Below are positions 3,301-5,990 of a stretch of DNA of 25,507 nt, one piece after another (position 1 is the first letter of the stretch; every line of letters begins with the position of its first letter). The stretch lies in UHGV virus genome UHGV-0069400; one strand, written 5' to 3'. The notes below the pieces were generated by a model. That model saw nothing but the letters and a program-made list of their open reading frames with translations. It made no database searches and was not told the origin of the DNA. Position numbers and translations under genes: made by a program. The DNA comes from a virus.

Positions 3301-3654
3301 GAAGGGCGTTCTGAGTTTGTATGTGGTGATTTTGCTGCGGTGATTGAAGCTGCCGGAGAAGGAGATGTCATCTTTTGCGATCCGCCGTATGAACCGCTCC
3401 CAAATACAGAGGGATTCACGAACTATTCCGGTCATGACTTTAAGTTTGAAGAGCAAAAACGCCTGGTGTCTCTGTTGACGGATGCTCATCGCCGAGGTGC
3501 AAAGGTTCTCATTACTAACAGTGGCGCGCCAAACATCAGAGAACTTTATCAGGACAGTGGCTTCAGAGTGGAACCTCTTTTTGCCAGACGTTCTGTGTCT
3601 TGTAAGGGGGACACTCGAGGTGTTGCTCATGACGTTATAGCGATATTGCTCTAA
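367..3654 (+). CDS. dmt: Bifunctional DNA methyltransferase: N-terminal C5-cytosine MTase (interrupted by an intein) fused to a C-terminal Dam-like N6-adenine MTase
   Basis: 1095-codon ORF, GTG start. C5-MTase motifs: motif [12 protein letters not shown], motif IV split as GGTP / intein / CQAFSIAG, then [40 protein letters not shown]-terminal Dam-like domain: [18 protein letters not shown]. Excising the intein leaves 754 aa. The symbol is assigned by analogy with the P1 bifunctional methyltransferase and is from memory. Confidence 0.8.
598..1620 (+). mobile_element. Intein (341 codons) with LAGLIDADG homing-endonuclease domain, inserted in C5-MTase motif IV
   Basis: Starts with Cys ([20 protein letters not shown], block A-like) directly after GGTP. 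Block B TTNDHPF; two LAGLIDADG motifs ([22 protein letters not shown]); blocks [23 protein letters not shown], ending His-Asn followed by +1 Cys (CQAFSIAG). In-frame joining restores [12 protein letters not shown]. The segment looks AT-richer than the flanks by eye. Confidence 0.85.
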
Positions 3655-3674
3655 TAAATTTATTAGTGTAATAT
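3645..3674 (+). promoter_or_regulatory. C1-type operator pair overlapping a sigma70-like promoter
   Basis: ATTGCTCTAATAAATTT at 3645-3661 is a perfect match to the operator consensus and overlaps the methyltransferase stop codon. An inverted, overlapping second site AAATTTATTAGTGTAAT lies at 3656-3672 (2 mismatches). TTGCTC (3646-3651), 17-nt spacer, TAATAT (3669-3674) forms a -35/-10 pair. Confidence 0.6.
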
Positions 3675-3838
3675 CGCCTCAATGAATCGTGATTTATAGA
3701 GCGATTTAGCTGTTAGCCGCGACAGGCGCGGCGGCAAGTATGGCGGGGTAGTGACTCCTTCCCCCTCATGACGCCGAGTTGCCAGGTTGACCATACACCT
3801 AAGTGGCAACACCGAAGTGCGTTACGAGCTTCCAGTTT

Positions 3839-3864
3839 GCCCATCTTCGGGTGGGCGTTTTTTT
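3839..3864 (+). terminator. Rho-independent terminator
   Basis: 7-bp stem GCCCATC/GGTGGGC (one G-U wobble) with a TTCG tetraloop, followed by G and seven T. Confidence 0.65.
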
Positions 3865-4329
3865 CAGGGTTTTCGTCATGGTTAGCGACTTTGCGGCGGT
3901 TTAGAAACTGACCATTAAAGTAAATGCAAACGATGATCTGATGATGGTAGCGGCCTAAGAAGCCAGACGCCACGGGGTATGAGTCGTCCCCCGTCAAAAA
4001 ATCGACCGCAGAGTGTCCCCGTCTGTGTATTAGGGAACGGGGAGGCACAACAGGTAAGGGCGCTGGTGTGATTAACCAGATGAACGAGAAGGGGCCATCT
4101 GTTGGTCAGCGTCCTTTCCTGTTGCGTCTTCTTTTCAGCGTAACAGCGGTGCTTAACAGCACTTTGGGTACAGTTCCACGAATTTACGGGTATATCCCGT
4201 CATGCTGAAAGCGCTAATCACGCTGGAAGCCAGGGTTATGCATCCCCTGTTACCGAATTGCAGCCAGGGCGCGGTGCGCCGAAAAGCATACGGAGGTGGA
4301 AGCCCTCGCCGGAGACGTACCCGGCAAGT

Positions 4330-4405
4330 GATGGTGTAGCTCAGCGGTTAGAGCGGTTGACTGTTAATCAACGGGTCGATGGTTCAAATCCATCCACCAT
4401 CGCCA
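4330..4405 (+). tRNA. tRNA-Asn (anticodon GTT)
   Basis: 76-nt cloverleaf folded by hand: acceptor GATGGTG/CACCATC, D-arm GCTC-AGCGGTTA-GAGC, anticodon arm GTTGA-CTGTTAA-TCAAC, T-arm GATGG-TTCAAAT-CCATC, discriminator G, encoded CCA. Confidence 0.9.
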
Positions 4406-4407
4406 AT

Positions 4408-4483
4408 GCCGGTTTAGCTCAGTTGGTAGAGCGCCTGCCTTGTAAGCAGGATGTCAGCGGTTCGAGTCCGTTAACCGGCACCA
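4408..4483 (+). tRNA. tRNA-Thr (anticodon TGT)
   Basis: 76-nt cloverleaf: acceptor GCCGGTT/AACCGGC, D-arm GCTC-AGTTGGTA-GAGC, anticodon arm CCTGC-CTTGTAA-GCAGG, T-arm AGCGG-TTCGAGT-CCGTT, encoded CCA. Starts 2 nt after tRNA-Asn. Confidence 0.9.
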
Positions 4484-4491
4484 ACACAACA

Positions 4492-4565
4492 GGTAAGGGT
4501 ATTTTGCGACGTCGGAGATCGCCGTGCTTGGCAGAGGGTTCGAATCCCTACGAAGTACCCTTACC
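4492..4565 (+). ncRNA. tRNA-like element lacking a canonical anticodon arm (tRNA remnant or minimal tRNA-like RNA)
   Basis: 74 nt closed by a perfect 8-bp stem GGTAAGGG/CCCTTACC. Contains a D-arm-like hairpin GCGA-CGTCGGAGA-TCGC and a T-arm-like hairpin AGGG-TTCGAAT-CCCT, but no 5-7-5 anticodon arm, and 8 unpaired nt between the T-stem and the 3' acceptor strand. Starts 8 nt after tRNA-Thr. Confidence 0.45.
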
Positions 4566-4711
4566 GTTGTGATGAAGTGCAGCTCTTAGAAGCAACCAGA
4601 AGATAAGCATCTGGCTTCACAACATAAACCGCAGGAACGACCAATAAACGGTAGTCCGTATGGAGAACACCCCGTTGAGGAAGAGGCCTGGCCGGAACCG
4701 TAACCGGCACT

Positions 4712-4803
4712 ACAACGTTGAGAACACTGGCGTAACGGGGTCATATCCCAATCTACGAATAAATGTTGCGTTGCAGCGTGACAACCAGTGTTCTCAACAT
4801 TGT
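4712..4803 (+). repeat. Structured repeat unit 1: 19-bp inverted-repeat stem enclosing a conserved 25-nt core
   Basis: Arms ACAACGTTGAGAACACTGG (4712-4730) and CCAGTGTTCTCAACATTGT (4785-4803), one mismatch. Inner stem CGTA/TACG and conserved core GTAACGGGGTCATATCCCAATCTAC (4732-4756). Conserved GGTGAATGC follows at 4804-4812. Confidence 0.6.
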
Positions 4804-4996
4804 GGTGAATGCACAGGCTGATGTGCCGCAACTACAGTAGTGCGCGCTTTGCGGGGCTTGCTACAACCCTGTGTCGGAGTTCAGCACCGACCATCACAGT
4901 TTGATTCTCTGGCATGAGCATAACGCTGAAATAAGTCCAGTCTGGTGCGGCCCGATCACCCGCCGTTAGCTCCACGAAACGGAGCACGTAACAGGT

Positions 4997-5056
4997 AAGA
5001 GCATTCTCCTGTAACGGGTTCATATCCCAATCTACAGGTCCACCAAGAATGCTCTT
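4997..5056 (+). repeat. Structured repeat unit 2: second copy of the conserved core with different but still complementary stems
   Basis: Arms AAGAGCATTCT (4997-5007) and AGAATGCTCTT (5046-5056). Inner stem CCTGTA/TACAGG. Core GTAACGGGTTCATATCCCAATCTAC (5011-5035), 24 of 25 identical to unit 1. GGTGAATGC at 5065-5073. Confidence 0.6.
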
Positions 5057-5214
5057 TCCGTTGCGGTGAATGCGGCTAAGCGCACGCGGGGAAATGGTTA
5101 TATCTGTCCATTATTTCTCCTTGTTTCCACGTCCACGGTGGATAACCAGCCAAAGGACACCGGGAGGCACCCGGCACCGCAACCTTATTTCCCAACCAGT
5201 AATGAGGTTAATAA

Positions 5215-5914: not shown

Positions 5915-5990
5915 GGCCCTTTAGCTCAGTGGTTAGAGCTGGCGACTCATAATCGCACGGTCACCGGTTCAAGTCCGGTAGGGGCCACCA
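5915..5990 (+). tRNA. tRNA-Ile2 (anticodon CAT, presumably lysidine-modified; elongator Met not excluded)
   Basis: 76-nt cloverleaf: acceptor GGCCCTT/AGGGGCC, D-arm GCTC-AGTGGTTA-GAGC, anticodon loop CTCATAA, T-arm ACCGG-TTCAAGT-CCGGT, encoded CCA. Body resembles E. coli ileX as I recall it; the G1-C72 pair argues against initiator tRNA. Confidence 0.85.

Follow-up and report, generated by a model that had tools for sequence, protein, structure and literature searches.

Two Paralogous RNA Hairpins in the Untranslated Leader of the ban Operon

The viral genome stretch UHGV-0069400 (25,507 nt; hereafter the window) belongs to a P1-like phage, 99% identical to NC_005856, and contains in the untranslated leader of its C1-repressed ban operon two structured elements, units 1 and 2, which are very probably paralogous copies of a conserved family of structured RNAs. 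Both are located on the transcribed (+) strand. As an overall explanation of these elements we modestly favor a hairpin of the RNase III-processed type that presents a mimic of the anticodon arm of initiator tRNA. The leader comprises, in this order, a dicF-like RNA with its terminator, a hairpin, tRNA-Asn, tRNA-Thr, three modules of a hairpin plus an STnc100-like domain, tciABC, tRNA-Ile, and ban. The annotation of P1 was transferred through the 99% identity (P1 coordinate – 65018 = window coordinate).

As the first-pass annotation of this region had claimed, the core GTAACGGG(G/T)TCATATCCCAATCTAC is present in two copies; it occurs exactly twice, at 4732–4756 and 5011–5035, both times on the + strand, with 0 occurrences expected by chance. 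The enclosing inverted repeats that it described are also real: the arms of unit 1 (4708–4730/4785–4807, 23 nt) are 91% complementary and those of unit 2 (4994–5007/5046–5059, 14 nt) are 93% complementary, and both inner stems, CGTA/TACG in unit 1 and CCTGTA/TACAGG in unit 2, are present in the minimum-free-energy folds. Unit 1 folds with –49 kcal/mol (z = –6.5) and unit 2 with –35 kcal/mol (z = –5.2); no shuffled sequence equals either of them, and both hairpins are retained when the whole 731-nt leader is folded. The outer stems, previously considered unrelated, are instead diverged homologs, GGTAAGAGC/GCTCTTTCC (canonical GCTCTTACC) versus GTTGAGAAC/GTTCTCAAC, with three compensatory, pair-preserving double changes within 9 bp. 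The core hairpin is GGGGTCATATCCC in unit 1 and GGGTTCATATCCC in unit 2. Unit 1 carries a second hairpin at 4764–4783, which is missing in unit 2, where single-stranded UCCACCA takes its place. Rather than the two units initially recognized, the leader contains four hairpins built on one shared scaffold, CACAACAGGTAAG(G/A)G...C(T/C)(C/T)TT(A/T)CC(G/T)TTG(T/C)G, the additional two, E(–1) and E0 (Table 1), having other apical inserts.

A covariance model, R1, was built from 15 lambdoid sequences of the E4 class (described below) only, with the window units outside the training set. RNAalifold predicted 33 pairs for these 15 sequences, eight of them with compensatory changes and almost none broken. 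In the window, R1 matched unit 2 with 40.2 bits (E ~1e-8) and unit 1 with 31.9 bits (E ~3e-6), in both cases over the full length and on the + strand only. Other matches outside the training set, likewise over the full length, comprised the Yersinia class (42–56 bits) and class L213 (39–49 bits), both introduced in the next section. A single MAFFT alignment of all classes misplaced helices by 2–3 nt, and a model-based alignment was therefore used. Among its 32 distinct non-training sequences, standard pairs fill 91.6% of the cells, compared to 74% after shuffling and 34–42% with slid partners, both-sided changes are found in 26 of the 33 pairs, and the covariation score is 0.44 versus 0.17, with 0 of 500 shuffles reaching any of these measures; the fitting of the alignment to the model flatters these figures somewhat. 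The covariation extends to internal helices beyond the boundary arms. Strand-specific detection by a model not trained on the units, together with covariation exceeding the controls, identifies a conserved structured RNA family. Related genomes thus show the core with varied stem sets, paired flanks and covariation above controls, so that many homologs now bear out the earlier suggestion that selection maintains the fold, the stems changing in a compensatory manner while the core is conserved.

The strand on which the structure is formed can be judged from the substitutions. In 58 unique family members 96% of the paired cells are canonical, with 166 G-U versus 35 A-C combinations, and the substitutions among the P1-like variants are transitions that preserve G-U on the + strand. 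The excess of G-U over A-C and these G-U-preserving transitions favor an RNA fold on the transcribed strand over a feature of double-stranded DNA. The reverse strands of perfect E4 hairpins also reach 30–45 bits under R1; the strand is thus assigned from the core together with the G-U bias and the genomic context, and R1 scores near 30 bits require strand and core checks.

Distribution of the Family in Phages and Bacterial Genomes

Exact scanning of IMG/VR for the core revealed at least 120 stretches. Apart from P1-like contigs, these disclosed a third stem set, carried by relatives of Yersinia phage PY54 and by one Yersinia alsatica genome. Elements of this Yersinia class are located directly after the Q gene, a PR'-like promoter and a tR'-like terminator. 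Across P1-like, Yersinia and lambdoid phages the core was found with at least four unrelated stem sets. Among bacterial species representatives it was detected only in Y. alsatica, Escherichia sp. and, as a single match at chance rate, in one Planctomycete.

Scanning for the 3' arm of the scaffold revealed at least 120 further stretches, mostly phage contigs of 40–48 kb. The scaffold arms CACAACAGGTAAGAGCATTG/CAGTGCTCTTTCCGTTGTGGTGAATGCG are conserved in sequence in many lambdoid phages (IMG/VR loci L209–L298), and the apical inserts fall into about 50 unrelated classes of 40–180 nt among the scaffold matches listed. Phage lambda itself has a scaffold hairpin (NC_001416, ~44788–44866; L299:489–565) directly after the 6S RNA/tR' terminator and before S; it is the obvious long duplex of the tR'–S interval and its insert is unrelated. 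Insert class L213 is a diverged form of the core, GGCGTGACGGGCCCATAACCCAATCCACGC, in which pairing of the inner stem is kept by an A-U to G-C swap. A scan for this type of variant, ACGGGNNCATAACCCAATC, added at least 120 more stretches, in which the E4 class is predominant.

The E4 class consists of a terminator T-run, a 21-bp basal duplex, the stem CCGGGY/RCCCGG, the core GACGGGCUCAUAACCCAAUCC and a second hairpin, GCGG-N6-8-CCGC. When E4 scaffolds were sampled by their 3' arm alone, 107 of 119 (90%) contained the exact core, the others being one- or two-base variants. The class is present in 2492 of 5426 complete E. coli genomes (46%), O157:H7 included, with up to five copies per genome (examples are L332:10745–10845 and NZ_CP038333 4453765–4453865). 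In these genomes it is either unannotated or called a (frameshifted) “hypothetical protein” by the Prokaryotic Genome Annotation Pipeline, and never an RNA. The O157:H7 element is located in an early-left leader, between the cI-like repressor gene and yfdP/yfdR...xis-int, after an STnc100-like RNA and a terminator. In E. coli K-12, the leader of CPS-53 yfdP lacks the element and the metY-rimP spacer shows no similarity to it.

The elements are located in untranslated leaders of operons under repressor or antiterminator control. Of the unique elements, 65% have the T-run of a terminator directly on their 5' side, and others adjoin tRNA genes; the orientation of the elements relative to terminators and downstream genes is constant. 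Searches of the window and about 35 related loci against Rfam, at gathering thresholds and at E ≤ 10, assigned the units to no family. Locus L273 (2439–2585) has a core module whose basal stem is only 7 bp long, placed between a tRNA-Asn, which it follows directly, and a canonical scaffold hairpin; the core junction can therefore exist apart from the long duplex.

The Invariant Tip and the Initiator tRNA

The invariant tip of the family reads UA-AC-GGG-(N2)CAUA(N)-CCC-AAUC-UA. Its hairpin has eight variants among 125 unique elements: GGGCUCAUAACCC (62), GGGUUCAUAUCCC (27), GGGGUCAUAUCCC (23), GGGCCCAUAACCC (6), GGGUUCAUAACCC (3), GGGCUCAUAACUC (2), GGGUUCAUAUCUC (1), and GGGAACAUAACCC (1). GGG, CAUA, and CCC are near-invariant, with variation at loop positions 32, 33, and 38. 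The commonest tip, GGGCTCATAACCC (GGG-CUCAUAA-CCC), is identical over 13–14 nt to the anticodon arm of E. coli metY, UCGGGCUCAUAACCCGA (metY positions 29–41), labeled in RefSeq as tRNA-initiator Met(CAU). The sequence of tRNA-fMet matched annotated tRNA-Met genes with at least 99% identity in 5426 of 5426 genomes, the median being four copies per genome. Initiator tRNA is distinguished by three G-C pairs in its anticodon stem, and CAU is the main identity element for MetRS; the GGG, CAUA, and CCC of the family coincide with these features. At the level of sequence, the tip shares with the initiator anticodon stem-loop the three G-C pairs, the 7-nt loop, U33, CAU, and a purine at position 37. 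The P1 tips, GGG-GUCAUAU-CCC in unit 1 and GGG-UUCAUAU-CCC in unit 2, are close variants of the metY arm.

The first-pass annotation had compared this hairpin to a T arm. That comparison does not hold: the stem has 3 bp and not 5 bp, the loops UUCAUAU and GUCAUAU have U at the position of A58, and the match is instead to an anticodon loop (U33-CAU-A37). Neither unit is a tRNA gene by Rfam RF00005 or ARAGORN, even at E ≤ 10; the only calls were at 4330–4405, 4408–4483, and 5915–5990.

Processing and Mimicry: A Model and Its Weaknesses

The basal duplexes, 8+14 bp with one mismatch in unit 1, 6+2+11 bp with 1-nt interruptions in unit 2 and 21 bp in the E4 relatives, have by sequence and fold the shape of an RNase III substrate, i.e., about two helical turns of nearly uninterrupted duplex. 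RNase III processing sites have been reported for the lambda N leader (Steege et al., 1987) and for the Q-dependent late transcript of lambda (Daniels et al., 1988, Virology 167:568). By analogy, processing of the P1 basal duplexes by RNase III appears moderately probable. Functional mimicry of initiator tRNA by the tip, suggested by the shared sequence, is a more tentative proposition that we regard as doubtful.

Each module has a basal duplex of ~20–23 bp, homologous to the hairpin located after tR' in lambda, topped by a junction with the initiator-like tip. Taken together, these parts could operate as follows. Loss of the repressor would allow transcription of the leader. RNase III would cut the long duplexes, as in lambda leaders and rRNA operons, and cuts at the four P1 stems would release tRNA-Asn and tRNA-Thr, the STnc100-like domains and the tciABC-ban mRNA. 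The capped stem-loop could then be released as a stable small RNA (sRNA), a look-alike of the initiator anticodon arm. It would act on a host factor that recognizes this arm, either by binding it or as a decoy; candidates are MetRS, the 30S P site together with IF3, and anticodon nucleases acting on initiator tRNA, such as VapC. VapC is reported to cleave initiator tRNA (Winther and Gerdes, 2011). A bolder form of the idea is that temperate enterobacterial phages (P1-like, lambdoid and PY54-related Yersinia phages) carry a dedicated initiator anticodon-arm decoy, excised by RNase III upon derepression, that neutralizes toxins of the host or of plasmids and defense nucleases, of the VapC type, cutting or sensing tRNA-fMet, or tunes initiation through the 30S P site with IF3 or through MetRS; it is speculative and we consider it unlikely. 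In a broader form, phages would use the shared scaffold to display exchangeable tRNA-like decoys, and this would account for the ~50 unrelated inserts, several of which are tRNA-like.

Of the possibilities listed at the outset of this work, a processed small RNA or a tRNA-derived element is the best current reading. A binding site for a phage protein is unlikely, because the P1-like, lambdoid, and PY54-related Yersinia phages in which the motif is invariant share no obvious specific partner.

Several observations weigh against a processed hairpin presenting an initiator mimic. The literature search yielded no transcript or cleavage data on the units. In the P1 loops, UUCAUAU and GUCAUAU, positions 32 and 38 are not those of tRNA-fMet, and C33 occurs in one class. 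The helix formed by GGG and CCC comprises just 3 bp and adjoins a conserved asymmetric internal loop, AC/AAUC; this loop is equally invariant and has no counterpart in tRNA, so that the motif exceeds a copied anticodon arm. Among P1-like phages, a deletion in Ro157c2YLVW (L003:1618–1697) removes just the 13-nt GGGTTCATATCCC hairpin from unit 2, and in SJ46-like genomes (L018:2270–2359) recombination between the cores has fused the two units and deleted the 279-bp interval; at least one copy is thus dispensable. In P7 and D6 the insert of unit 2 is replaced. Finally, the insert of the lambda hairpin is unrelated, which means that the scaffold does not require the core.

Alternative Explanations

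The strongest competing explanation, which we still consider improbable, is that the apical inserts are debris of tRNA genes captured in a recombination-prone slot near phage tRNA clusters, the hairpins being processing stems and the tip functionless. The elements do adjoin tRNA genes, and a remnant of the 3' end of tRNA-Thr, TAACCGGCAC, is located 5' of unit 1. T-loop-like GTTCGA/GTTCAA, and with it T-arm-like hairpins, are found in 7 of 49 insert classes versus 1.2 expected; insert L243, like E0 of P1, combines a canonical T arm with two further hairpins, one resembling an anticodon arm and the other a variable arm. The hypervariability of the inserts and the deletion and fusion variants point in the same direction. 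The 23-nt tip is, however, invariant despite compensatory turnover of all surrounding helices, the diverged class L213 retains the fold through its A-U to G-C swap, the exact core is present in nine tenths of the independently sampled E4 scaffolds, and no scaffold has a complete tRNA nested in it.

Slightly less credible is a cis-acting transcription element of the nut, put or rrn boxA type, modifying RNA polymerase or blocking Rho across the leader and its terminators. The position of the elements in operon leaders, usually immediately 3' of a terminator, would suit such a role. The 3' strand of the scaffold (e.g., at 5049–5068 and in E4), UGCUCUUU, resembles rrn boxA, UGCUCUUUAACAA, and the GU-rich GUUGUGG that follows resembles boxC. 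The strand GUUGYGGUG can pair either upstream with the hairpin base or downstream with the closing strand of the STnc100-like domain, the two folds being mutually exclusive. Set beside the boxA consensus GCUCUUUA, the boxA-like UGCUCUUU is found in unit 2 and many lambdoid copies, where it is buried in a stable duplex, but it is not conserved in unit 1 (GUGUUCUC) or in the Yersinia class (GUGCUCAG). Moreover, the elements are located after terminators and not before them, P1 has neither N nor Q, and it is the tip and not the boxA-like strand that is invariant.

A trans-acting base-pairing sRNA, with the single-stranded core as a seed on a host or phage mRNA (e.g., at a UAUG start) and possibly with Hfq, is very improbable. 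Conserved loops on variable stems are typical of such RNAs, and the neighboring domains resemble the Hfq-associated STnc100/PasD family (bioRxiv 10.64898/2026.05.13.724894). A search of the window for the complement of the core, however, revealed no site of 10 nt or more, and 9-mers only at chance rate; the units have neither a terminator nor a U-tail, and the predicted fold places half of the core in base pairs.

Lower still we place a feature of the DNA itself, with boundary sequences or inverted repeats serving recombination, protein binding or cruciform formation, which we hold to be highly improbable. Sequence-conserved arms do flank swappable inserts, “boundary sequences” are annotated on both sides of the interval in CUS-3, and the fusions arose through recombination between two cores. 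Against this stand the bias toward G-U, the strand-specific detection of the window units by the covariance model, the constant orientation relative to terminators and downstream genes, and the covariation in internal helices outside the boundary arms. Other leads, weighed on general knowledge of the elements concerned, were set aside, cix/hix sites and the ERIC repeat among them: integron attC (RYYYAAC/GTTRRRY) does not fit; terminal repeats of a miniature inverted-repeat transposable element lack target duplications here and the inserts differ; and the C1 operator as a source has only TGCTCT in common with the element. The bacterial Y RNA YrlA (RF02553) was also rejected, its lone match reaching 19.9 bits against a gathering score of 69 and lying over true tRNAs.

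That the minus strand encodes Plp and Upl proteins, with the repeats being coincidental, is scarcely credible. The original statement that the region has no coding potential needs qualification, since the P1 reference annotates there the minus-strand coding sequences plp and upl; of these, plp can almost certainly be dismissed as a gene, and the status of upl is questionable. The plp frame is interrupted in 12 of 44 homologous copies (27%), including the window, where a stop is found at codon 81, and its 3' end runs antisense through tRNA-Thr. The upl frame is intact in 79 of 79 copies, which comprise only eight distinct sequences, and its ATG and first ~13 codons are simply the unit 2 hairpin read in reverse complement, with the ATG opposite the CAU loop. 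In P7 and D6 the interval is replaced and neither coding sequence is annotated, and the G-U-preserving substitutions are those expected of a + strand RNA.

Relation to Known Systems

RNase III processing in lambda leaders, the neighboring STnc100/PasD sRNAs and the mosaic “boundary sequences” of lambdoid phages are already known. With the lambdoid RNase III leader hairpins and the metY-nusA-infB leader the units share an extended, almost perfect duplex of ~20 bp, placed within an untranslated leader after a terminator or beside tRNAs; the metY-nusA-infB leader undergoes processing of the RNase III type. The published lambda RNase III work apparently does not describe the family, its swappable inserts or the initiator-like tip. 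In the E. coli thrS operator, too, a larger structured RNA presents a hairpin copied from the anticodon stem-loop of a particular tRNA, whereas the P1 units regulate no cognate protein gene in cis and the copied tRNA, to judge by its sequence, would be the initiator. In YrlA, likewise, tRNA-like modules cap a long stem in which the 5' and 3' ends pair.

The lambdoid “boundary sequences” and moron slots also have conserved flanks and highly variable inserts downstream of Q/tR', in a slot that hosts tRNAs as well. The stx genes are located in this slot too. The units differ in that their two flanks pair with each other and covary as strands of an RNA helix, and that one class of inserts is strongly constrained.

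Literature, Rfam, and RefSeq searches revealed no module family, no RNA annotation and no paper on an initiator-tRNA-like tip. Regarding RNAs of the P1 ban leader, the literature search found nothing, and a preprint on P1vir/hfq RNA-seq is silent on plp, upl, and these RNAs. The RNA module has thus stayed unannotated although few phages have been studied as thoroughly as P1 and lambda; in P1, doubtful open reading frames (ORFs) overlie and conceal it, and the analysis argues for dropping plp, and probably upl, from the P1 annotation. An alignment and a model for the new RNA family are now available. If the tip were an initiator-tRNA mimic, it would represent a new phage route against translation initiation or against tRNA-targeting toxins and defense systems. 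Such a mimic would fit the recent findings that phage tRNAs counter anticodon nucleases. On a conservative reading, the ban leader of P1 and the late and early leaders of lambdoid phages would be arrays of tRNAs, sRNA-like domains and mRNAs spaced by processing stems.

Organization of the ban Leader

The features of the leader are listed in Table 1. A stretch of 730 bp 3' of tRNA-Thr contains no + strand gene and ends at tciA.

Table 1. Features of the ban leader region in the window.
Feature	Position	Strand	Basis and remarks
Pban promoters (P1ban, P2ban, rightward) and bivalent C1 operator	3633–3680	+	Transferred P1 annotation; drive transcription across the whole region
Intrinsic terminator closing the dicF-like leader RNA, 5' of the hairpin array	3838–3865	+	Terminator scan; dicF-like region annotated in P1
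E(–1), scaffold hairpin CACAACAGGTAAGGGCGCTGG...CAGCGTCCTTTCCTGTTGCG, unrelated apical insert	4046–4126	+	Sequence; fold –48.8 kcal/mol
tRNA-Asn(GUU)	4330–4405	+	ARAGORN, Rfam; scaffold hairpins on either side of the tRNA pair
tRNA-Thr(UGU)	4408–4483	+	ARAGORN, Rfam
plp	4454–4831	–	P1 annotation; antisense to RNA modules
E0, scaffold hairpin with tRNA-like apex	4485–4572	+	Sequence, repeats, fold
S0, short domain, GTTGTGA/TCACAAC closure	4566–4623	+	Fold; 5' strand shared with the 3' strand of E0
Unit 1 (E1), 8+14 bp basal duplex, inner stem CGTA/TACG, core 4732–4756	4708–4807	+	Sequence, fold, covariance model R1
S1, STnc100/PasD-like domain, TTGTGGTGAATGC start, hairpins GCACAGGCTGATGTGC and GTCGGAGTTCAGCACCGAC, CATCACA end	4799–4901	+	Fold; lambdoid loci share the architecture
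upl	4832–5023	–	P1 annotation; antisense to RNA modules
Unit 2 (E2), canonical scaffold GGTAAGAGCATTCT/AGAATGCTCTTTCC, inner stem CCTGTA/TACAGG, core 5011–5035	4985–5068	+	Sequence, fold, R1
S2, STnc100-like domain directly 5' of tciA, closed by GTTGCGGTG/CACCGCAAC	5060–5183	+	Rfam RF02076; inverted repeat
tciA, tciB, tciC, then tRNA-Ile(CAU), then ban	Downstream of the 730-bp stretch; tciA 5215, tRNA-Ile 5915–5990		P1 annotation

The apex of E0 comprises an anticodon-arm-like hairpin (loop GUCGGAG), a variable-arm-like hairpin and the canonical T arm GGGTTCGAATCCC, with the D arm missing. P1-like phages have at least three alleles of the E0 insert, P7 being among those with a different one.

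The sequence GGTGAATGC downstream of the core, previously included in the repeated element, is indeed present after both units; it is not part of them and constitutes the 5' closing strand of the adjoining STnc100-like domain. Its assignment to the neighboring module follows from the Rfam STnc100 match and from the same domain architecture after unit 1 and in lambdoid phages. The match to STnc100 (RF02076) at 5062–5181 scored 41.9 bits (E = 4e-7, model positions 31–147 only), below the gathering score of 47, and this domain is thus not a member of the family at that threshold; in the match UGCGGUG pairs with CACCGCA at 5175–5183. After unit 1, the architecture consists of the closing helix GUUGUGGUG...CAYCACAAC, the 5' hairpin GCRCAGGCUGAUGYGC and the 3' hairpin (C/U)CGGAG(A/U)UCAGCACCG(G/A). 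The same STnc100-like architecture is found 3' of the scaffold hairpin in many lambdoid phages, and true STnc100 copies (75–100 bits) are present in lambdoid prophage loci with tciA/terB homologs. STnc100 and PasD are reported to be homologous prophage sRNAs, PasD being encoded near Q and PasA/PasC near TerB (bioRxiv 10.64898/2026.05.13.724894). The units and these RNAs share a neighborhood and are physically fused, each unit being followed by the opening strand of an STnc100-like domain; the STnc100 model, however, does not cover the units, and the P1 domains have no terminator, with only one of them reaching a sub-threshold score.

The dicF-like RNA that opens the ban operon (3773–3865) terminates in the strong intrinsic terminator GCCCATCTTCGGGTGGGCGTTTTTTT, which means that all downstream expression, that of ban included, requires terminator readthrough. 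The layout is that of PR'-6S RNA-tR' in lambda. P22-like phages (SfI, S137, SPN9CC) have the tRNA-Asn(GUU)/tRNA-Thr(UGU) pair of P1 downstream of Q/tR'. The ban leader of P1 looks like a transplanted lambdoid late leader.

P7 and D6 (L005:1631–1717 and L004:1650–1736) contain an additional class II tRNA-Ser(UGA) between the units. Their insert in the unit 2 scaffold is a sequence that in lambda lies just 3' of the scaffold hairpin, a sign that P1-like and lambdoid leaders have undergone mosaic exchange. In Ro157c2YLVW (L003:1183–1345), an insertion of ~170 bp with a 42-codon ORF is located exactly between the CCGGAACCGTAACCGG hairpin and the base of unit 1; to judge from such sequences, the module boundaries appear to be insertion points.

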